DNA from: Alphaproteobacteria bacterium
GTDB taxonomy: Bacteria; Pseudomonadota; Alphaproteobacteria; UBA7887
Length of the DNA: 64,000 nucleotides
Direction of reading: 5' to 3'
Assembly: GCA_965216755.1 (NCBI GenBank)
Contig: CBDCGL010000011.1
Span: 2,400,001-2,464,000, forward strand
Shown here: piece after piece, positions 53,569 to 64,000 of the stretch
Numbering within the stretch: the stretch's first letter is position 1
Layout: each line of letters starts with the position of its first letter
Notes under the pieces: generated by a model
What the model was told of the DNA's origin: nothing
Databases searched by the model: none
What the model saw: only the letters and a program-made list of their open reading frames with translations
Position numbers and translations under genes: made by a program

Positions 53569-55308
53569 TCAGGGCAGCGCGAACACCCAGAGTACGCCAC
53601 CGATCGGCGTCGGCCGCGTGTCGCCGTCCCAACCTCGCTCCGCGGCGAGCGAATTTTCCATGCGCACCGCGTCGACGCCCCAGCCGGCTTGCACGGCAAT
53701 ATACTGCTTGCCGTTGACCGAGTAGGACGAAGGAACCGCGGTAATTCCGGAGTTGGTCTTGAACTGCCAGAGGATCTCGCCGGTCTCGCCGTGGAAGGCC
53801 CGGAAAAGACGATCCCTGGTGCCGCCCGCGAAGACCAGGTTGCCACCGGTGGTGAGCAGTGGGCCCCAGTTGAAGGACTCGAAGTTCTGCGTCCACACCT
53901 CTTCGCCGGTGTTCAGATTCCAGGCCTGGACTTCGCCGATATGGTCCGAACCCTCGACGTAGTACATCTTGATGTCCGGGATCGGCACGCCGAGCCACAG
54001 CTCACCAGGCACCAAGGGCACGTCCTCGCCGATCAACGAACCGCACAGGTTGTCGTTGGCCGGAATATAGAACAGGCCGTTCTTCGGGTTGTACGCTTCC
54101 GGTGGCCAGTCCTTGCCACCCCACAACGATGGGCAGAACTTGATGAGTTCGCCGACCACAGGCTTCTTGGACTCGTCGTAACTCGGCCGCCCTGTTTCCG
54201 GGTCGATGCTTGTGAAGGCGTCTTGGCGCACATATTTATGCGCGTCGACAAAACCGATGTCCGCGCCCGTGCCGCGATCGAGCAGCCACAGATAGCCGTT
54301 GCGCCCCGCATGGGCGAGACCTTTGATCTGCTGGCCGTCGCGTTCAATCGGAACCAGCAACGGGGTGGAAACCTCGTCCCAATCCCACGAGTCGTTCCAG
54401 TGATACTGGTGGTGGCCGACAATCTCGCCGTCCGCAACCCGGATTGCGAGCGCCGAGGTGGTGTAGAGGTTGTCACCCGGGTGCAAGTCGCCGGTCCAGG
54501 GCGCGGCATTGCCGGTGCCCCAGTAGGAGACGCCGGTATCGGGGTCGTAGTTTCCGGTCAGCCAGACCGAGCCGCCGCCCGTCTTCCAAGCATCGTTTTC
54601 CCAAGTTTCATGGCCGGATTCACCCGGACCTGGGATCGTGTGGCGGACCCATTCTATCGCGCCAGTCTCGGCATTTATCGCCGTGATATGGCCGCGGATG
54701 CCGTATTCGCCACCCGACGTGCCGACCATGATTTTGCCTTCCGCAATCAGCGGCGCCATGGTCATGTAGTAGCCTGTCTCCCAATCGTCGGTGGCGGTCT
54801 TCCAGAGTTCCTCTCCGGTCTCCGCGTTGAGAGCGACCACCATGCAATCCGTGGTCGTGATGTAGACGTTGTTGCCGTAAAGCGCGACGCCACGATTGGT
54901 CGGATGGAGCTGGAACAGCTCTTCCGGGATCTCATGCTGGTAGCGCCACAGAAGCTCACCGTTCTCCGCGTCCAGCGCGATCACCTGGTTCTCCGGCGTG
55001 GTGATGAACATGACGCCGTCATTGACCACCGGCGGCGATTGGTGGCCTTCGTTGACATCGGTCGAGAATGCCCAAGCCGGCTTAAGATCTTTAACATTCT
55101 CGGTATTGATTTCTTCCAGAGGGCTGTAGCCCCAGCCGGCGTAATTACCGCGATACATGAGCCAATTCTCGGGCTCAGGGTTGACGAGCCTGTCGTCGGT
55201 AACGGCCGAGTAATCCGCAGCCGCGGCCGCGGCCGCGGCCGCGGGCAGCATCAAAACCCCTGCTACCAGCATGCGACCGATACGCCACACGTATTTTTTA
55301 GCATCCAT
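53569..55308 (-). CDS. Periplasmic PQQ-dependent dehydrogenase (methanol/ethanol family)
   Basis: Signal peptide; NWLMY, YSPL..IN..NV..L..AW, NRGVA, GGEYG, GTGN, WDWD; Trp-docking repeats. Confidence 0.92.
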   Translation of the reverse strand: MDAKKYVWRIGRMLVAGVLMLPAAAAAAAAADYSAVTDDRLVNPEPENWLMYRGNYAGWGYSPLEEINTENVKDLKPAWAFSTDVNEGHQSPPVVNDGVMFITTPENQVIALDAENGELLWRYQHEIPEELFQLHPTNRGVALYGNNVYITTTDCMVVALNAETGEELWKTATDDWETGYYMTMAPLIAEGKIMVGTSGGEYGIRGHITAINAETGAIEWVRHTIPGPGESGHETWENDAWKTGGGSVWLTGNYDPDTGVSYWGTGNAAPWTGDLHPGDNLYTTSALAIRVADGEIVGHHQYHWNDSWDWDEVSTPLLVPIERDGQQIKGLAHAGRNGYLWLLDRGTGADIGFVDAHKYVRQDAFTSIDPETGRPSYDESKKPVVGELIKFCPSLWGGKDWPPEAYNPKNGLFYIPANDNLCGSLIGEDVPLVPGELWLGVPIPDIKMYYVEGSDHIGEVQAWNLNTGEEVWTQNFESFNWGPLLTTGGNLVFAGGTRDRLFRAFHGETGEILWQFKTNSGITAVPSSYSVNGKQYIAVQAGWGVDAVRMENSLAAERGWDGDTRPTPIGGVLWVFALP

Positions 55309-55666
55309 ATCTTGCTCCCTCAGTGGGTATGTGTCGCGGACGCAGGCTCCTGGAGCTCGTCTCAATCCGCGACTGGACTTTTTTTCTGGTTCCGCCAAAC
55401 GACCGTCATGTTCACCGGCAACGATCAGAACGCCCTCGTCCACTGTCGACGGGGCTCAGGCACGGCCCGCTTGCTGGTGCGACCTCCCTTTCTCCCGCGA
55501 TCAATAAGTTTTCTCGTCTACATATTTCCTAGACAATTGTCTGCCGTCGGTTGCACACGCATTCATGATGCGATTTTCTTGACTATGCTTAAGTGTAGCC
55601 ACATCTGCCGGATCGTGGCAGATGTGGCTACGCCCTGGCGCCTGTCGGTCGCTAGGGAGGACTCGG

Positions 55667-56890
55667 TTATGTCAATTTCACGCTCTGATTGCTGTCGCGA
55701 ACAACGATTTCTTTGAAACGCGCCAGGCCGGTTCGGCGTTGGAAAACCGTGTTGGCGATGATCCAAACCCGAACAACGCGCGTCGCAGGGCCACCAATAT
55801 GTTGGGCATAGTCGTCGTAGACGTTGCGGCTCTCTGATATCCACTGACCCAGTGAGTCCCGCCCGTTTCGCACCACCATGTGTGTCTCTATTGGTGTCCA
55901 TCGCGGCAACGGGCAACGAAACACATACCCGACGGGCATGTCCACGCTCCACATGTACGTGATATCCTGGCCATCATCGAATTCGACGGCCATCGACAAA
56001 TAGTCGTGCGTGACGATTTTGTTCTCGGACAATGGCGACGGCAGTTCCTGCACATTCCAATGCCAGTCCAGCACGGTATCAGGGGCGAGCGGCATGGAAA
56101 CATCGCGTTCGAGGATACAAACGTTTTTATGAGTATGGCAGCAGATCTCACCGTCCGCGCACGACGAGAATATGCCGCCAGCGCCGAACATGAAGCCTGG
56201 TCGCCAGCCATCGGGCAGAGGTGGTTCAGTTTCTAGCCGCGTGACCTCTTCACGTATGGCGCCGGCAACATCGCCTTGATCCAGCAGACTACGCAACCCT
56301 GATAGAGGATCGCCGTTCCAGACCAACGCGACGGCCTCGATACGACCATCGCCTTGCTGATAGACGTCTTGTGGCATTGCCACGGCTTCCGCTTTCTCGT
56401 CCACCCAATCGGCGATTGCGCGCGCAACCGAAACCGGACCGGAACGGGCCGCAACCATCGTGCCCGTATTGTTCATTGGCGTGTAGATTGGGCTTTCGCC
56501 GCCGGCACGCGCGAACAGCGCAATGCCAGGTTCGACCCACACGTCGAGCTCTCTCGCAACCCACCAGCGCCCGCTGGCCAAAAAGGTCACGTGCTGACCT
56601 TCTTTAACGTCCAGGCCTATGTCTTTCCAGGGCAGGTCGGTTCCGACGATTTCAAAGCTTGCATAACTATGCAGCTCTGAACTGTCGGCGGCCTGGATGA
56701 TCCGCTCAATGCCTTGGGTAAACTCGTCGGGCGCCATCAAGGTGTGCATCTGGGTGGCCGCCGCGGTGCGAATATATGACATGACCGTCGGCCCAGAGAG
56801 GCCGAGGGCCGCGAGGCCTTTTAGTATTTTCCGCCGCGCGGCGGCGTCTTGAGGCAAATCGAAGTCTGGGTTCTTGATTTCTCTACACAT
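55667..56890 (-). CDS. Tat-exported DUF3047-like protein
   Basis: ARRKILKGL signal; L.W.W.V..LP, HDY, ITYMWS, RNVYDDY. Confidence 0.7.
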   Translation of the reverse strand: MCREIKNPDFDLPQDAAARRKILKGLAALGLSGPTVMSYIRTAAATQMHTLMAPDEFTQGIERIIQAADSSELHSYASFEIVGTDLPWKDIGLDVKEGQHVTFLASGRWWVARELDVWVEPGIALFARAGGESPIYTPMNNTGTMVAARSGPVSVARAIADWVDEKAEAVAMPQDVYQQGDGRIEAVALVWNGDPLSGLRSLLDQGDVAGAIREEVTRLETEPPLPDGWRPGFMFGAGGIFSSCADGEICCHTHKNVCILERDVSMPLAPDTVLDWHWNVQELPSPLSENKIVTHDYLSMAVEFDDGQDITYMWSVDMPVGYVFRCPLPRWTPIETHMVVRNGRDSLGQWISESRNVYDDYAQHIGGPATRVVRVWIIANTVFQRRTGLARFKEIVVRDSNQSVKLT

Positions 56891-57080
56891 GCTTCCTCCC
56901 CAACGGCAATCAATACGCCTTGTACCCTTGCTTGTGTCGCATATGGGGGGCGTCGGTTGGTGATCTTCGCGAAAGTATTTTGTAATTTGATTGTGAGGAT
57001 TCATCGTGGGTTGGCGCGCGAGGCGCCCCGTGCCATGCCGCGTGAATCAGTTTGCCGACCTGCCGAAGGAGATCAAGACG

Positions 57081-57785
57081 ATGAATGTTGCAGACAAAAA
57101 GGCGATTGTGTTCGGCGGAACATCTGGCATTGGCTTGGCCGCCGCAAAGCAACTCGCCGCGCTCGGGGCGTCTGTTATCGCGGTCAGCCGGGACCCGGAC
57201 AAAGCCGGCGACGTCCCGGCCGGCATCAGCCTTCGAAAATGTGATGTGCGCGATCGCACCGCCGTCTCGGAGCTGTTTCAGACGTGCGCACCATTTGACA
57301 TATTGGTGAATGCCGCCACGGGTGGTCGGCGCGCCTTGGGGCCGTTTCTGGAAATGGATATGGACGGTTTTCAGAACTCCTTCGACAAGCTGTGGGGCTA
57401 TGCGAACGTGATTCGCTATGGCACCACACACATGAGCCCGGACGGCACGATTGTGCTGGTCAGCGGGGCGCCGGCGCGCAAGGCGAAACCGGGGCAGGTG
57501 TCGTTGTCCTCGGTTGGTGGCGCGGTTGAAGCTTTTGCGCGCGCCGTGGCGCCGGAAATTGCGCCGCGCCGCTTGAATGTTGTATCGCCCGGCTCGATCG
57601 ACACACCGATGATTTCATTGCAAGGCGACGAACGTCGTGCCTTCTATGAAAAAGCGACCGCCAAGCATCTCATCCCGCGACCGGGCACCGCCGAGGAGGT
57701 TGCACAGGGCATCATTTTCGCGATCCAGAACGACTTCATTACGGGTACGACAATCGATGTTGATGGCGGCGCGCTGCTTTCGTGA
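57081..57785 (+). CDS. Short-chain dehydrogenase/reductase
   Basis: GGTSGIG, NVVSPG.IDTP, ITG..IDVDGG; AAGGAG RBS. Confidence 0.9.
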   Translation: MNVADKKAIVFGGTSGIGLAAAKQLAALGASVIAVSRDPDKAGDVPAGISLRKCDVRDRTAVSELFQTCAPFDILVNAATGGRRALGPFLEMDMDGFQNSFDKLWGYANVIRYGTTHMSPDGTIVLVSGAPARKAKPGQVSLSSVGGAVEAFARAVAPEIAPRRLNVVSPGSIDTPMISLQGDERRAFYEKATAKHLIPRPGTAEEVAQGIIFAIQNDFITGTTIDVDGGALLS

Positions 57786-57924
57786 ACGCGCTGACCACCC
57801 GACACGCCGTGATCGTTATTGCGGGGCGCGCATCCGCATTTGACGATGGCCGCCGCGGCAAGTGCCATCTTGTGTACCAAATTCGTGGATATCTGGGCGT
57901 ATCGCGCCGGGTCAGCGCTGTCGC

Positions 57925-59430
57925 CTAGTCGGCGACGCGGATGGTGACTCGCGCGCGCGCCAGATGGGTCGGATCGATGCGTGAAAAGGACGAAACCAAC
58001 TGGGACATCGAGTCGACCGGAAGCGGCGTCAGATCGGCGACCTTGTAGGCTTCGGGCAGCTTTGTTCCGACCTCCTTATAGGAAGCAAGGCAGACAACCT
58101 CTTCCTGCACGCCAGGTCGTTCGAAAACGATATCGAACAGCGCGTCTTGGGACGGAATCTGCAGGGTCTTGCCACCGATGGCGTAAGGGTCGGGCTGGAA
58201 GCTGTTCGGGAAAATGCGCGCAATCTGGCCCCGGTCGTCTCGGTAATAGCAGTAGACGTAGGAATCCTGCGAGGTCGTCACCGCCAAGCGCAAAACCTCT
58301 TCCACTCTGTATTCGGGGGCGGCGCCTTTCTCGGTCACAAGTTCCAATCCAAGCGGCGGCGGCGCGGTCACGTCGACGGTCGCCGGCTCGGCCAGCTTCG
58401 GTCTGTATCCCAGCGCAAGATCTTGGGCGATCAGCGACCGATAGAGCTGAAGATCGATGTCGCCGTTCGCCAGCAAACCGTTTTCCGCCTGATAGCGGGA
58501 CACCGCTCCTTTTGTACTTGTGTCGAGCGTGCCGCTGATCGGACCGTAATAATAGCCTTCGCTTGCCAGCGCGCGCTGCACAAAAACGATGCGGTCTTGC
58601 GAAGACATGGACTCAAACCACGATCTTGCCACCGCAATCATTTCAGGATTGGTCTGTTCGATTTGCAGGCATCGCCAATACGGCACTTCGGTGAGTTTCC
58701 CCATGATCTCGATAGCGCTGAGTTCAATGAGCGTTCGAGTGGCCGCGTGAACACCTTCGCTGTTGTTCATCGAGACATTGAAAAACAGACCGGCCTTGCC
58801 GATCGTCGCGTTGGCATCACCGCCAACGCCGGTGCGGCTCACCGCAATCGAGTTGTTCGCCGCGATACCTGGCAAAATTTGGCGGGTCGCAAGATGCGCC
58901 ATGTTCATGTCGACTGACACAACCGACACGACCAAGTCTTTGGAAACACCCAAGCTGAAGTCGGGGACCGCGACGCCGCCGCCGACTTGTTCGGCAATCA
59001 CACCCGAATCGAGCTGCGTGATAGCGCCGCGGATATAGTAACTCGGCACGCGGAACTCGTCGGTGTAGCCAATCAGAGCCTGTAACTCTGCAACGTCGTC
59101 TTGGGACTGGTCAAAATCGACGAATGTAAACGCCTTGCTCTTCACGGACATGCGCGAAATCGCCGAAATCAGCATGTCCTTGGTGCCGGCGCCCACCTCG
59201 CCGGTCTCGTCCGGAATGCCATCACTGGTCACCACCACGTCGCGCACGCCAAAAGAATGGAACATATCGTCCATACACTGCAGCGCCGGCGTGAAACTGG
59301 TGATATTGCGCATCGGCGTCGTCTTCGGCTGGGCCACGGTATGGGCGGTTTGCGGATTTGACGTCACGCAGGCCGAGAGCGAGAAGACTAGGCTTAAGGC
59401 TGCCAGGTACTGAACGGTGTTTCGTTTCAT
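57925..59430 (-). CDS. CsgG/HfaB-like lipoprotein fused to peptidoglycan-binding and DUF4384-like domains
   Basis: Lipobox LSAC; TSFTPALQC, IPDETG, YYIRGAITQLD, VVSVDM; VQRALASEGYY...AVSRYQAENGL; YVYCYY...RIFPN. Confidence 0.78.
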   Translation of the reverse strand: MKRNTVQYLAALSLVFSLSACVTSNPQTAHTVAQPKTTPMRNITSFTPALQCMDDMFHSFGVRDVVVTSDGIPDETGEVGAGTKDMLISAISRMSVKSKAFTFVDFDQSQDDVAELQALIGYTDEFRVPSYYIRGAITQLDSGVIAEQVGGGVAVPDFSLGVSKDLVVSVVSVDMNMAHLATRQILPGIAANNSIAVSRTGVGGDANATIGKAGLFFNVSMNNSEGVHAATRTLIELSAIEIMGKLTEVPYWRCLQIEQTNPEMIAVARSWFESMSSQDRIVFVQRALASEGYYYGPISGTLDTSTKGAVSRYQAENGLLANGDIDLQLYRSLIAQDLALGYRPKLAEPATVDVTAPPPLGLELVTEKGAAPEYRVEEVLRLAVTTSQDSYVYCYYRDDRGQIARIFPNSFQPDPYAIGGKTLQIPSQDALFDIVFERPGVQEEVVCLASYKEVGTKLPEAYKVADLTPLPVDSMSQLVSSFSRIDPTHLARARVTIRVAD

Positions 59431-59484
59431 TTCGGCCTCCGTGCGGTCGCGCAGTGCGCTGTCGCTCGCTCGCGTCGTAGCTAG

Positions 59485-59784
59485 CTAGCAGTTCCGATTG
59501 ACGTTGATGATGTCCCTGGCGACGATGATGACCTCTCGTGGTGGCCGCGCGTTGCCACGTAAGTCGCCGACGATCAGGTCACTACACCCGTCATTCGTGA
59601 TACGGCCGAATTTCTTGGGGTCGGCCTTGCGTCGACTCAGGCCTTCCGCGACCACGGAGTTCACCTTGGCTTGCGAGCCGGGGTCAAGATGCGGCCGATG
59701 ATTGATCTCTTTGGCCGACGCGCTGGTGAGCAAACCGATCACCAGGCCGACGCCGGCAAATATCGCGTATGTTCGGGTTTTCAT
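59485..59784 (-). CDS. Small secreted protein with two Cys
   Basis: Signal peptide ending ASA; C...PREVIIVARDIINV...C; GGAG RBS. Confidence 0.7.
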   Translation of the reverse strand: MKTRTYAIFAGVGLVIGLLTSASAKEINHRPHLDPGSQAKVNSVVAEGLSRRKADPKKFGRITNDGCSDLIVGDLRGNARPPREVIIVARDIINVNRNC

Positions 59785-59818
59785 CGCTCTCTCCCTGCGC
59801 TCTGCCATCGCGCGACGG

Positions 59819-60235
59819 TCAGCAGCTATCGCCAAACGCGCCGACAGCGACACAAGACCGAGTGCCGGCGCCGCCGGCCACGTTCAAGACGCTTTCGACG
59901 ATAACCGTTTGCTTGAAGCTCCCGGGGATGGTCACGTCGCCTTGGACAGTGCCGACGTACATTTCGGCCTCGCTGCCAACGCCGTTGGCCAGATTGACGG
60001 CGCGATCGACCGCCGTCGCATTCGTCAGGTTGCCGCCGACACGAATATCCCCGGCAATCGCGCCAATCGACTGAATGGCCGTACTACCGGCGCCGCGCGC
60101 CTGATTGGCGGCCTCGTTGACAATAGCGACATTGACGAGACGCCCGCCGACTTCAATTTCACCCGCCGAAACCGCGCCTGCCGACACTTGGGCCATAACC
60201 GCGGCAACGACTAGGAGCATTATCCTTCGGTTCAT
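59819..60235 (-). CDS. Secreted beta-repeat protein (3 repeats, C-terminal Cys pair)
   Basis: Signal peptide; three ~37-aa imperfect repeats. Confidence 0.75.
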   Translation of the reverse strand: MNRRIMLLVVAAVMAQVSAGAVSAGEIEVGGRLVNVAIVNEAANQARGAGSTAIQSIGAIAGDIRVGGNLTNATAVDRAVNLANGVGSEAEMYVGTVQGDVTIPGSFKQTVIVESVLNVAGGAGTRSCVAVGAFGDSC

Positions 60236-60409
60236 CTATTTGGTCCCATTACACAATTTCGCATCGGCTTGGTTGCCTAAGACCCAACCGCGGGCGGCCA
60301 GCATTCAGCCAAATATACAGCAAAATCTCCCACCGTGGCGTTCGGGCAAACAGCCCATGTCCCGTTCGACGCGGGCGCGCCCGAACCACGGACCGCCGCG
60401 GCGATTTGT

Positions 60410-60736
60410 CTATTCGCCAGCAACGCTGATCGTGCCGATATTCTGCGTGGCGGTGCTTTCGAAGCCATGTGCCAAGTTGACGGCATTCTGGCCCACAACG
60501 CCGACATTGACGAGGTCGCCGCCGACGAAAAGGCCGGCGTCGTCGCTGATGCTGATGGTGCCAATGTTTTGTTCGGCGCTGCTGCCGGCACCAAACGCCA
60601 GATTGACCGCATTTTGGCCGACGATACTCAGGTTCACGGCGTTGCCGCCAACCTCGAGGTCCGCGCCGAAGGCAGTGCCCGCGCTGATCAGACCGATGGC
60701 GGCGGCCACCGGCAGACTTACAAATTTGGCAAACAC
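60410..60736 (-). CDS. Secreted beta-repeat protein (2 repeats, no Cys)
   Basis: AAGGAG RBS; signal peptide; two ~42-aa repeats L.VGG..VN..[IV]VGQNAVNLA.G..S.A.QNIGTIS. Confidence 0.78.
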   Translation of the reverse strand: MFAKFVSLPVAAAIGLISAGTAFGADLEVGGNAVNLSIVGQNAVNLAFGAGSSAEQNIGTISISDDAGLFVGGDLVNVGVVGQNAVNLAHGFESTATQNIGTISVAGE

Positions 60737-60848
60737 GGCTATGTACTCCTTTGAAGTTCTGAGATGTAGCGTTTTTCTCTACACACGAAGGTCGGTCCCA
60801 ATAGGGGTTAAAGTTGCCCAACAAATCAGCGTGAGGGCCCGCTCGCTA

Positions 60849-62294
60849 TCATCTTCCCTCGCCTTTCAGGATGGCGATCGCCGCGTCGATGCCTCCGTCA
60901 ACGCCGTTTTGAAGATCATCCACTGACAGAAATGGCGTCACGACGTCGGGCGGAATGCCGACCGCTTCGAACACTTCGCCGTCTGGCCCGGCATAGATTT
61001 CGTTGGACAGGCTGACCAGCCAACCGTTTGGCAATGACCGATACAGCTCGTCCGAAAAAATGCCATTGGTCGGCTCTCCGACCAAAGTGACCTGCGGCAA
61101 AGACCGCATGGCAAGCGCGAATATCTCCGCGGCGCTTGCCGTTTCCGCGCTGACCAAGACAACAACGGGGCCCTGATAGCGTGGTCCGCGTGCGGGGCTA
61201 AGAACAAGATCGTGCCGTGTGGTCTCGCCTCCCTTGTCGTGCGGACGCTTCGACCCAAAGACGCGTGTCCGGTCGGCAAACCGACTGGCAATGGCAAGCG
61301 CCACGGCATCGTGGCCGCCGCCGTTGAGGCGCACGTCGACAATCATGCCTGGCAAGTGTCCAACATCGGCCAACATTTCGTTCAGCACGGGTTCAAGAGC
61401 CGCCAGGTCATCGGCTGAAGTGTGTGCCCAATAGTCGAGGTCAGACATGCTGTCGACACGGAAATAGGCCGTCGATCCTTCGATCGCGCCCCACATAACT
61501 TGCGCGTCGAGCGCATGTTCGAGCCGACCGTTCAGATAGTCGTTTTTCAGCACTTTCTGATACAGCGCATATTGTTTTTTGAGATACGCGTCCGGGTTAC
61601 AGTCTCCTTCCAAGCGGTCGCGACAAGCTGCGACAAGCCTGCTGGAAAGCGGCGATGCAACCGACACAACATCCTGGTCATCGATGTACAAAGCCACGTG
61701 CGCGTCGCCGAGCCGTTCCAACATTTCGTCAAGCACATGGCCAAGTTCTCGTCTTGTCGAGCCTTCGCCGACGCGAGGGCGGAACTCGGCGTAGATCGCC
61801 TGCCAATCAACATTACGTTCGGGAAAAAACGCGTAGTGTTGATCGAACGTCTGCCACAGAACCTCAAAATTCAGTACCGGATCGTCTGTAGGCCGCGTCA
61901 AGCCTGTCGGGCACACGCGGTCGAAACCGCCATCGTCCGCCGACACAAATGTAATCGGCGCCAAAGTGCCATCGTTGCGAACTTCGAATATTCGCGTTTC
62001 CCCATTCTGGCGTAACGCAAGGTCAGCAGGAAGTCCGTCAGAGTCGTATTCGCCACTCAGCAGACAACTCACCGGTGTCCGTTCTATCAATCTGGCTTTA
62101 TCCGGCGTAATTTCCGCAACCAAGCCGTAGCCTTGGGATTGCCACAGGCCGATCAGTTCGTCCGCTATCGGTTCGCTTGCGTCGCAACCACTTGCGATGG
62201 CCGATGAGGACATCACGAACCATATCGCTTTGAGACCATGCAACCGGCATGCTCGCCGTGTGGATTGACCGCCTTGTTCGCCCCGTATGGTCAT
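60849..62294 (-). CDS. S41-family peptidase, probable lipoprotein
   Basis: FEVLW..FD.HYAFF, DVRLNGGG, TASAAE, VGEPTNG; ASGC lipobox-like; GGGAG RBS. Confidence 0.85.
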   Translation of the reverse strand: MTIRGEQGGQSTRRACRLHGLKAIWFVMSSSAIASGCDASEPIADELIGLWQSQGYGLVAEITPDKARLIERTPVSCLLSGEYDSDGLPADLALRQNGETRIFEVRNDGTLAPITFVSADDGGFDRVCPTGLTRPTDDPVLNFEVLWQTFDQHYAFFPERNVDWQAIYAEFRPRVGEGSTRRELGHVLDEMLERLGDAHVALYIDDQDVVSVASPLSSRLVAACRDRLEGDCNPDAYLKKQYALYQKVLKNDYLNGRLEHALDAQVMWGAIEGSTAYFRVDSMSDLDYWAHTSADDLAALEPVLNEMLADVGHLPGMIVDVRLNGGGHDAVALAIASRFADRTRVFGSKRPHDKGGETTRHDLVLSPARGPRYQGPVVVLVSAETASAAEIFALAMRSLPQVTLVGEPTNGIFSDELYRSLPNGWLVSLSNEIYAGPDGEVFEAVGIPPDVVTPFLSVDDLQNGVDGGIDAAIAILKGEGR

Positions 62295-62389
62295 GGATAC
62301 TCCCACGAATTTGCTGAACCTCATCTGGTGGGCTACACGCACCCCAGCGACGCCCATGGCGCCGCAAAGGATACGCAAGGAACGGATTG

Positions 62390-64000
62390 TCAGATCGCTT
62401 TGGCCGGGTTGCCGAGCCAGTGCGCGTTCGAATCGACTGTCTCGCCCTTCATCAAAAACGAATCCGCGGCCAATATGGCGTTGTCACCCATGGTGACCCC
62501 ATAATGCGCGAACGCGTTGATACCCAGCGTACAGCCTTTGCCAATCTTGATATGATCGGACTTGAACACGCCTTCTTCAAGGGAATGCGACTGCAACGTG
62601 CTTTCCTCATTCAGCGTGCAATAGTCGCCAATCACGGCCAGTGTTTTCTCGGTCGGCATGCAGCCGTCGTCGAAGACCATCTTTCCGACCCGGACACCCA
62701 ACAGCCGCGAAATCACACTTTTGAACGGTGTCCCAGTAAACAAAGATTGCAAGGGCGTGTCGGCGACTTTCCAGTGACGTTCGACCAGCCAGTAGCGGTC
62801 ATCATAAATGGTACATGTCAAGGGACGCAGTCTCCTAAATCCGAGACTGCACCATTCGAGTCCGACAAAATAGCCAATGGTCAAGGCGAACCCGGCGATA
62901 AAACCGACGACCAGCGACGCGAGTCCGAAGTCGTTGTAGAGCATCAGCGCGGTGAGGCCAAGATACATAGTAAGGTAGGAAAACAGCCATTTGCCGAGCA
63001 ACCAAAGCCCCATGGTTCGAATGTTATGGCTGTTCTTCTTGCGCAACTGGCTGTCACGCTCGCCGTCATCGACATTTGACATCTGTTGGTCACGCAGCGT
63101 CGCCCGCGGGATTTCAAAGCTCGGTGACCCGAGCAGGCCGACACCTTCACGCACCGGACCGTCGATCGGGATCATGACCTTGGTCGCCAACAAACAGTTG
63201 TTGCCGGTTTTGCTTTCCGATGGATAAAAGATTGCATTGCCCAAGTAATTATGATCACCGATAACGGTCTTCGAGACTTTGAAAGACGACGTCGAGAGTT
63301 GCGCATTCATCATCGTCAGCCCGTCGGAGACCATCGTGCCGGTCCCGATGTGGCACAGCAGCGGATTGTCGTGTTGCTGCATGGTGCCGAAATTGGAACC
63401 GGTTTGGATGACTTTCGCCAAGTCGTAGCCGATGAACCGCAAGTAACGCGTGATATACGAGCTGTCGCCAAACAGGTCATTGTAGAACTTCACGTTACTG
63501 ACCGCGTGGATGTATTGGAAGATAAGGTAACGGATCCCGTAGATCACGTAGGTCCTGCCCTCCTTCATGAACAAGTTGGCGAGTCGAGGCAACACGCCCG
63601 CAAATATCAGGCCAAGAGGAATGCTGAGCGCGAACACCCCGAAATGCACGGCCGGCAAGTATTGCGTGATGGGGCGCCAGTATGTGGCCAGAAGCGTGGA
63701 GAACCGCGCTAAGGCGTCGCCCTCGCCGAACAAGAACGGCAGAAAGTGAACCATGGCGAGCAACGGCAGCGGCAACACGATGAAATAACCGCTGATGATC
63801 AGGTATGCCGAATAGATGACACGCCGCAAAGTGCCGCAGTTTTTGGTTTCCATTTGGCAGAAATCGGTGTCCGTCTCTTCCGCCGGGGAGCCGTGATAGC
63901 GTTTCCCGGCCGGGACAACTTGACCCGGCTGCAATGAAGACACATGAGCCAGCTGGGTGTTGTCCTCCATAGCGGAATTGATGTCGATGATCGAGGCTTC
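62390..64000 (-). CDS. Pls/PosA-family NRPS-like synthetase, C-terminal membrane/beta-helix region (5' end outside window)
   Basis: TM helices alternating with hexapeptide repeats; QTGSNFG, LLGSP.FEIPR, QSHSLEEGVFKSD, W.GNPA. Confidence 0.8.
   Translation of the reverse strand, partial: EASIIDINSAMEDNTQLAHVSSLQPGQVVPAGKRYHGSPAEETDTDFCQMETKNCGTLRRVIYSAYLIISGYFIVLPLPLLAMVHFLPFLFGEGDALARFSTLLATYWRPITQYLPAVHFGVFALSIPLGLIFAGVLPRLANLFMKEGRTYVIYGIRYLIFQYIHAVSNVKFYNDLFGDSSYITRYLRFIGYDLAKVIQTGSNFGTMQQHDNPLLCHIGTGTMVSDGLTMMNAQLSTSSFKVSKTVIGDHNYLGNAIFYPSESKTGNNCLLATKVMIPIDGPVREGVGLLGSPSFEIPRATLRDQQMSNVDDGERDSQLRKKNSHNIRTMGLWLLGKWLFSYLTMYLGLTALMLYNDFGLASLVVGFIAGFALTIGYFVGLEWCSLGFRRLRPLTCTIYDDRYWLVERHWKVADTPLQSLFTGTPFKSVISRLLGVRVGKMVFDDGCMPTEKTLAVIGDYCTLNEESTLQSHSLEEGVFKSDHIKIGKGCTLGINAFAHYGVTMGDNAILAADSFLMKGETVDSNAHWLGNPAKAI

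Follow-up and report, generated by a model that had tools for sequence, protein, structure and literature searches.

Four co-directional genes of an alphaproteobacterium of the lineage UBA7887, here called g1 to g4, can be read, with somewhat better than an even chance of being right, as a curli-like (type VIII-like) secretion and assembly system whose fibre subunits and accessory protein belong to new families. The genes occupy positions 57925 to 60736 of a stretch of 64,000 nucleotides (nt), hereafter the window, which is part of contig C11 of a 5.0 Mb, 99.8% complete genome. The order of the genes is conserved in other genomes, the lipoprotein g4 has a CsgG fold, g1, g2 and g3 match no known family, and the repeat-built subunits are predicted to form a beta-solenoid and to stack. 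No published description of the system was found in the full-text literature, subscription journals lying outside the search.

All four genes are on the minus strand, and g1 (60410..60736) is followed by g2 (59819..60235), g3 (59485..59784) and g4 (57925..59430) with intergenic gaps of 174, 34 and 54 nt, respectively, which agrees in shared direction and in position with the original prediction, made from the sequence of the window. g1 has a GTG start and encodes 108 amino acids (aa), 84 of them in the mature protein; g2 encodes 138 aa and g4 501 aa. The open reading frame (ORF) of g3 was listed as 59485-59853; the ATG at 59784 is taken as the likely start because a purine-rich AGGGAGAGAG stretch precedes it and the signal peptide begins there, which gives a product of 99 aa. 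The N-termini of g1, g2 and g3 are charged over a short stretch, followed by a hydrophobic core and then an Ala-x-Ala-like site, as judged by eye and by a simple hydrophobic-core rule, while g4 carries the lipobox L-S-A-C21, with Cys21 invariant in the 45 family members. Export signals on all four products had been claimed at the outset: the lipobox, and with it the lipoprotein nature of g4, is borne out, and the signal peptides of the other three hold by the inspection just described.

g1, the candidate polymerising subunit, is made of a signal peptide and two repeats, with no extra sequence at either end and no Cys. The repeats, set 42 aa apart, had been recognised in the original prediction and were matched letter for letter; they align with a score of 125 against 27.2 +/- 5.5 for 2000 shuffles (z 17.9). 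The mature part (G14 A11 V11 N9 S7) lacks P, C, K, R, M, W and Y, the absence of the first four having been pointed out before. g2 is a second secreted subunit with three repeats of 36-37 aa (pairwise z 7.8-11.0 against shuffles) and the C-terminal motif A/S-C-x-x-[IV]-G...C (C128 and C138), again as first described. Across the family the repeat occurs in two to more than ten copies and follows, by eye from alignments, roughly the consensus [VI]-x-V-G-G-x-x-x-N-x-x-x-V-x-x-x-x-x-N-x-A-x-G-x-x-S-x-A-x-Q-x-I-G-x-I. A word-indexed search for relatives of g1 gave three others at E <= 0.01 (28 candidates), a profile of 33 subunits (g2 and 32 relatives) collected 149 clusters among 8000 candidates scored, and an exhaustive search with the subunit profile reached 567 representatives at E <= 0.001, 149 at E <= 1e-10 and seven at E <= 1e-30. 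Two apparent leads were discarded. A third g1 'paralogue' in the host genome (E 4e-4) lies within a 727-aa ORF resembling a flagellar hook-associated protein and is a match of composition; the automatic name 'putative DUF3060' on one cluster of a Propionivibrio homologue, whose other clusters were labelled 'hypothetical protein' throughout, received no support from Pfam scans to E 10.

The subunits belong to no family that we could name. Neither g1 nor g2 has a credible Pfam or NCBIfam match, none of g1, g2 and g3 hits an NCBIfam model at E <= 1, no credible Pfam match was obtained for the 33 aligned subunits, and none of the 120 subunit clusters listed bears a name or a Pfam domain. The subunits and g3 found no match among Pfam, NCBIfam or PDB sequences; the subunit profile in particular found neither FapC nor CsgA among PDB sequences at E <= 10. 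When 18 family representatives (nine of them of 809-1194 aa) were scanned against Pfam, 17 had no family and one a Peptidase_S8 domain. The curlin repeat has a period of about 20 aa and two strands, whereas here the repeat measures 36-42 aa and has three strands. The Pfam model Curlin_rpt (PF07012; 34 positions) matched nothing in g1 and g2 at E <= 10, in 33 relatives at E <= 0.1, or in the six-frame translated host genome at E <= 1, with a positive E. coli control, and hhalign gave the subunits a probability of 0.6% against CsgA and 0.2% against CsgB, aligning only signal-peptide or start residues. The original prediction was thus right in holding that the repeat is not curlin.

The AlphaFold2 model of g2 (mean predicted local distance difference test score, pLDDT, 82.9; mature part >90) is all beta, with three strands of about 7, 15 and 6 residues per repeat, each repeat of 36-37 aa making one rung of a predicted solenoid. 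Among 48161 chains compared by VIA-align, its best structural neighbour is the CsgA fibril 8enq_A, a weak match (Z 5.1, root-mean-square deviation (rmsd) 2.9 over 76 residues; Foldseek E 0.18), followed by left-handed beta-helices (Z 3-4), HET-s (Z 3.7) and FapC (Z 2.8). In Foldseek, FapC (9u4u_A) and CsgA take the top two rows, the first at a non-significant E of 3e-3 and a probability of 0.41. Four copies of mature g1 were predicted to stack head to tail, as had been expected of subunit oligomers, all three runs scoring 0.68 and the best of three controls 0.00. In the calibration, 20 of 30 proteins with a solved pair structure and one of 23 with a solved single-chain structure came up to this value; since it used two copies and other alignments, these counts hold only roughly for four-copy g1. 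In the runs contact agreement was at least 97% and partner pLDDT at least 85; repeat 2 of one copy (63-108) contacts repeat 1 of the next (25-69), and the residues paired between copies are i and i+42, which is the internal repeat offset. The predicted stack resembles a continuous solenoid fibre, a likeness that is the model's opinion and no measurement.

Several observations speak against a curli-like system, and those that concern the subunits lead to a different account of them. g4 might export the repeat proteins while these are short capped beta-solenoids, acting as monomers or small oligomers in a coat, as an adhesin or as a ligand- or ice-binding face, and forming no open-ended amyloid-like fibres; we regard this as rather unlikely. 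The C-terminal motif (Cys-x(8-12)-Cys in its spacing), which could close the last rung, is present in 30 of the 33 aligned subunits, the exceptions being g1 and its two full-length relatives, and a strict pattern finds the pair in 89 of the 150 best family representatives, several more having longer tails. The same repeat also occurs as a covalent array in proteins of 955-1194 aa, and in three of these the Cys motif was seen at the end. Such proteins, with over ten covalent rungs and that motif, would be monomeric rods, and thus the rung would also work inside monomers, with the Cys motif as a possible cap. P0287, P0316 and P0325 (1135-1194 aa) bear the subunit-type motif at the C-terminus, and the two that were inspected hold more than ten repeat copies behind a long Asp/Lys/Gly-rich N-terminal region. 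In P0323 (663 aa) the repeat stands beside a subtilase domain. No known structure matches g2 strongly (best Z 5.1, none in Foldseek at E <= 0.001), and among its neighbours at Z 3-4 are monomeric beta-helix enzymes and antifreeze proteins; the stacking of g1 is a prediction of a kind of model that tends to stack solenoids. On the other side, g1 and its two full-length relatives have neither the Cys motif nor an end extension, and about 40 of the 150 representatives lack the motif; uncapped two-rung solenoids expose both edges, and the g1 tetramer is predicted as an in-register stack that scores far above its controls. The host genome moreover has six subunit genes in three loci, as expected of building blocks. 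One detail of the original prediction is not borne out here: g2, with its Cys pair, had been taken for a nucleator or cap, but a motif carried by 30 of 33 aligned subunits, orthologues of g1 included, singles out no special cap or nucleator.

g4 is a putative outer-membrane lipoprotein of three domains: a CsgG-fold domain (58657..59313, minus strand; residues about 40-258), a peptidoglycan-binding PG_binding_1 domain (58435..58599, minus strand; residues 278-332; Pfam E 1e-9, 38.8 bits against a cut-off of 23) and a DUF4384 domain (58075..58314, minus strand; residues 373-452; Pfam E 8.5e-19). It was folded with AlphaFold2 from a 45-member family alignment (mean pLDDT 74.0, predicted template modelling score 0.44, low confidence at 145-165 and 201-224). 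A Foldseek search with this model places CsgG chains first (6l7c_A, E 2e-7, probability 1.00), and in VIA-align eight CsgG entries lead with Z 12.3-14.0 over model residues 40-258, seven of them with an rmsd of 3.5-4.7 over 153-180 residues and the eighth, 4uv3_A (Z 13.4), with 12.9 over 190. Behind these, at Z 8.8-9.7, comes the fold class of PelC, FlgT, the LPHT ring and HpaA. The long hairpins 131-179 and 185-224 align with the membrane hairpin regions of CsgG. Comparison by hhalign of the 45-sequence g4 profile with E. coli CsgG gave a probability of 87% (E 3.9e-6) over 212 columns (CsgG 6-253); when PDB sequences were searched with the profile alone, CsgG came up no better than at E 0.19, and the relation to CsgG therefore rests on fold and profile-profile comparison. 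The DUF4384 domain is a beta-sandwich modelled with pLDDT >90, with Cys394 and Cys447 invariant in 45 sequences, and the C-terminal domain matches Ig-like (immunoglobulin-like) and CARDB-like sandwiches at Z 7-8.5.

g3 is a small secreted protein with two Cys, as had been noted, C67 and C99 bracketing its C-terminal segment in the 99-aa form. Family alignments show a conserved mature N-terminus, K-E-x-N-x-R-P-H-L-D-P-G-S-Q-A-K-V-N. Its profile collected 177 clusters at E <= 0.001 among 1483 candidates, and among the 120 clusters listed there is no Pfam domain and no name beyond 'hypothetical protein'; no PDB sequence matches the profile. The idea that g3 is a CsgF-like adaptor found no backing in sequence (hhalign probability 0.2-0.7% against CsgF, CsgE and CsgC) and survives as an analogy. 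Kinship of g3 with the subunits was considered and rejected, the profile comparison aligning signal peptides only.

The genes had been expected to occur together in other genomes, and they do so in two proteobacterial classes. A scan of species-representative genomes with the g4 alignment gave 510 matching stretches; 482 of them proved to be relatives, and the best 80 were examined. Genes in these 80 loci were counted with purpose-built hidden Markov models run over the locus ORFs, clustering of all ORFs being blurred by shadow ORFs in GC-rich DNA. g3 is present in 39 of the 80 loci and subunit-like ORFs in 31. In 32 of the loci with g3, g4 follows it immediately on the same strand; in three, all betaproteobacterial (Rhodocyclus, Propionivibrio and one labelled Betaproteobacteria), the two genes diverge, and in the remaining four g4 is cut or unparsed. 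At least one subunit gene accompanies g3 in 27 of the 39 loci, in Alpha- and Betaproteobacteria. A small order-level survey of 23 genomes, too few for statistics, found g3 in two, the host and a genome here called G010, in which subunit(s), g3 and g4 occur together at two loci, with g4 cut by the contig end at one of them.

Besides the window locus, the host genome has a second locus (L016; C11:3866000-3877000) with the order subunit-g3-subunit-g3-subunit-g4, followed by a small Cys-Trp-Gln protein; its subunits have 170-173 aa and its g4 paralogue is 59% identical. The third (C11:2824586-2825540, positions 5586-6540 of L105) is an orphan subunit-g3 pair without an adjoining g4, downstream of ATP-synthase-like genes. 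We read g3 as a link between subunits and g4 because it sits with a subunit alone in this orphan pair and with g4 alone elsewhere. The small secreted Cys-Trp-Gln protein (about 100-120 aa), absent from the window locus, was seen downstream of g4 homologues in 48 of the 80 loci, nearly all the Azospirillum ones included; outside this set it was seen at L016 3808-4173, minus strand, and L017 7099-7464, plus strand. Loci with g4 and without g3 often have DUF4399-like genes upstream and an OmpA-like gene together with the Cys-Trp-Gln protein downstream; the g4 homologues of Azospirillum (e.g. L073 and L082, with others among L064-L102) are 43-48% identical and stand in the same setting, with DUF4399-like genes on the upstream side and an OmpA-like gene on the downstream side. 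Secreted Gly/Asn/Ala repeat proteins of another class, in which G-I-G-N-x-A-x-Q recurs, are encoded no more than 8 kb from g4 homologues in about seven Azospirillum/Rhodospirillales loci (L099 2273-3455, plus strand; L075 3622-4460, minus strand; L094, L095, L096, L098 and L100). These have no Curlin_rpt match; one passes Pfam DUF6851 (32.8 against 27 bits), the rest scoring below or not matching.

To the points against a curli-like system belong also those that concern g4 and its distribution. The sequence of g4 falls below the cut-offs of both relevant families: Pfam CsgG (PF03783) scores 18.0 bits (E 0.0019; 19 bits in the genome scan) against 20.8, and the equivalog NCBIfam HfaB (NF037935), the best family-specific match, 24.4 bits (E 1.4e-5) against 300. 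The tips of the hairpins have pLDDT <50. Between D-E-T-G and M-L there are eight residues (E-V-G-A-G-T-K-D) in g4, none of them aromatic, against 20 in E. coli CsgG, with the flanking P73, D74, T76, G82, T83 and K84 invariant in 45 of 45 sequences; the 12-residue stretch absent from g4 holds Tyr, Asn and Phe in CsgG, presumably the ring residues of its constriction. PMC4594475 describes the CsgG nonamer as a 36-stranded barrel passing unfolded subunits, with a 0.9-nm constriction of concentric stacked Phe, Asn and Tyr rings, an arrangement called required. The HfaB/CsgG-like motifs reported for g4 in the original prediction are real, though weak in the sequence itself. In addition, 12 of the 39 g3 loci have no subunit gene in the available flanks (three of these with <600 nt upstream), and 41 of the 80 loci, every Azospirillum-labelled one among them, have g4 without g3 (those of Azospirillum lacking the subunits as well), which implies that g4 has a job independent of these subunits. 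The co-occurrence of g4 with g3 and the subunits stands, but the g4 family reaches beyond it: g4 is a platform that serves both with these subunits and in their absence. We conclude that g4 is a CsgG-fold protein that is neither a canonical CsgG nor HfaB. According to the NanoporeDB paper (PMC13397529), CsgG-like pores are taxonomically broad.

The same facts would suit a lipoprotein of the CsgG/PelC/FlgT fold class that is tethered to the wall as a ring or scaffold and does not translocate the products of its neighbours, the repeat proteins and g3 remaining periplasmic or leaving by another route and the linkage reflecting a shared envelope function. The core alpha/beta fold is common to PelC, FlgT, the LPHT ring and HpaA, none of them a peptide channel (PelC, FlgT and HpaA being cell-envelope ring lipoproteins), g4 without subunits often keeps company with the OmpA-like gene and the Cys-Trp-Gln protein, and the orphan subunit-g3 pair manages without an adjoining g4. 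We consider this explanation unlikely. The non-channel folds lie 3-4 Z units below CsgG and match over model residues 57-249 with the low-confidence hairpin tips left out, while the alignment with CsgG runs through the two hairpin insertions, which are absent from those folds; g3 directly precedes g4 in 32 of 39 loci; and a Pfam scan of the seven ORFs between 55667 and 62378 detected no other outer-membrane export component, the CsgG-fold lipoprotein being the sole envelope component there.

In the curli-like mechanism that we infer, g1, g2 and g3 would cross the inner membrane by Sec, and g4 would be lipidated and placed in the outer membrane, where its CsgG-fold domain may oligomerise into a beta-barrel channel held to the cell wall on the periplasmic side by PG_binding_1 and DUF4384. 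Unfolded subunits would pass through this channel and, outside the cell, fold into beta-solenoid rungs of about 36-42 residues that stack head to tail into fibres. g1, with its two open ends, would be the polymerising unit and Cys-motif subunits such as g2 co-polymerising or end units, while g3 may link subunits and g4 as a targeting, capping or nucleating factor, in a role comparable to that of CsgE, CsgF or CsgB.

Curli (E. coli csgBAC/csgDEFG, type VIII secretion) offers the closest parallels to such a scheme: small subunits exported by Sec and built from imperfect repeats in which Gly, Asn, Ala, Ser and Gln abound, a dedicated CsgG-fold lipoprotein with the gene for a small accessory protein beside the channel gene, and a predicted beta-solenoid subunit whose best structural match is the CsgA fibril. 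The present system differs, apart from its repeat, in the C-terminal Cys pair of most subunits and in a g4 that adds PG_binding_1 and DUF4384 and is without the 12 constriction-loop residues. In Fap (Pseudomonas FapB/FapC and FapF) the FapC repeat is of similar length, and the g2 model is three-stranded; here, however, the outer-membrane component is a CsgG-fold protein instead of a FapF-type barrel, and none of the seven ORFs between 55667 and 62378 resembled FapA, FapD or FapE in the Pfam scan. The nearest alphaproteobacterial analogue is the Caulobacter holdfast anchor HfaA-HfaB-HfaD (HfaE), likewise an alphaproteobacterial operon with a CsgG-like lipoprotein and small proteins. According to 10.1101/2022.07.20.500906, small proteins that form SDS-resistant (sodium dodecyl sulfate-resistant) multimers depend on HfaB for their surface localisation, and none of the conserved HfaE motifs quoted there was seen on reading the g3 sequence; for g1, g2 and g3 the comparison with this system rests on the NCBIfam search.

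That the four genes are an ordinary divergent member of curli, Fap or the holdfast anchor is, on this comparison, most improbable. The shared logic of small repeat subunits and a lipoprotein channel, the weak HfaB and CsgG matches of g4 and the FapC and CsgA rows at the head of the non-significant Foldseek list for g2 all point that way; against them stand the missing Curlin_rpt match in g1, g2, 33 relatives and the whole genome, the negligible hhalign probabilities of the subunits and of g3, the failure of the subunit profile to find FapC or CsgA among PDB sequences, an HfaB score of 24 against 300 bits, and the two extra domains of g4.

The genes around the four give little further indication. 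On the upstream side, 112 nt from g1, lies an S41 peptidase gene (60849..62378, minus strand; Pfam Peptidase_S41 E 2.4e-28), whose membership in the system is uncertain. Homologues of this tail-specific-type peptidase (E 1e-133 to 1e-143) adjoin g4 homologues in four of the 80 loci (L058, L061, L077 and L078), none of them with g3 or subunits; the peptidase may be a partner that recurs with the channel, or its position may be left over from a common gene order. A short-chain dehydrogenase gene on the opposite strand is convergent with g4. Farther downstream there are a 445-aa DUF3047 protein (55667-57004, minus strand) and a 624-aa ORF (53569-55443, minus strand) that by eye resembles dehydrogenases dependent on pyrroloquinoline quinone; no link of these two to the fibre genes was seen in related loci. 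A scan of 57400-62800 found no sigma-70-like promoter and four terminator-like sites against a shuffle mean of 6.4, none in a minus-strand intergenic gap, which is uninformative, and the locus has no CsgD-like regulator.

Curli and Fap serve as models for controlled amyloid formation and for the biofilm matrix. The abstract of PMC12822426 names these two alone as dedicated secretion-assembly systems for bacterial functional amyloids, and PMC13723633 mentions TasA and Bap in addition. We tentatively put forward, at rather less than even confidence, that the genes described here represent a third dedicated Gram-negative fibre system beside curli and Fap, with a new family of subunits (three-strand rungs of 36-42 aa, in most cases with a C-terminal disulfide motif that closes them), an accessory protein that is likewise new and obligatory, and a wall-anchored CsgG-fold channel without the narrow constriction. 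Perhaps the loss of the constriction lets disulfide-stapled segments pass. As part of the same tentative proposal, the g4 family, with at least 482 relatives, Azospirillum included, would be a general export platform whose cargo differs between lineages.

If this is true, a CsgG-fold channel has been kept while subunit, accessory protein and constriction have changed, which would show which parts of the design are essential, and research and materials science would gain a new self-stacking solenoid rung. The CsgG-fold relative in Azospirillum bears on Azospirillum baldaniorum, for which a 2026 report (PMC13723633) describes the absence of csgA and csgG and yet amyloid-like matrix material; a distant CsgG-fold relative may have been overlooked there. 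More broadly, the genes are candidates for a matrix or surface-fibre function in little-studied Alpha- and Betaproteobacteria of soil, water and wastewater.

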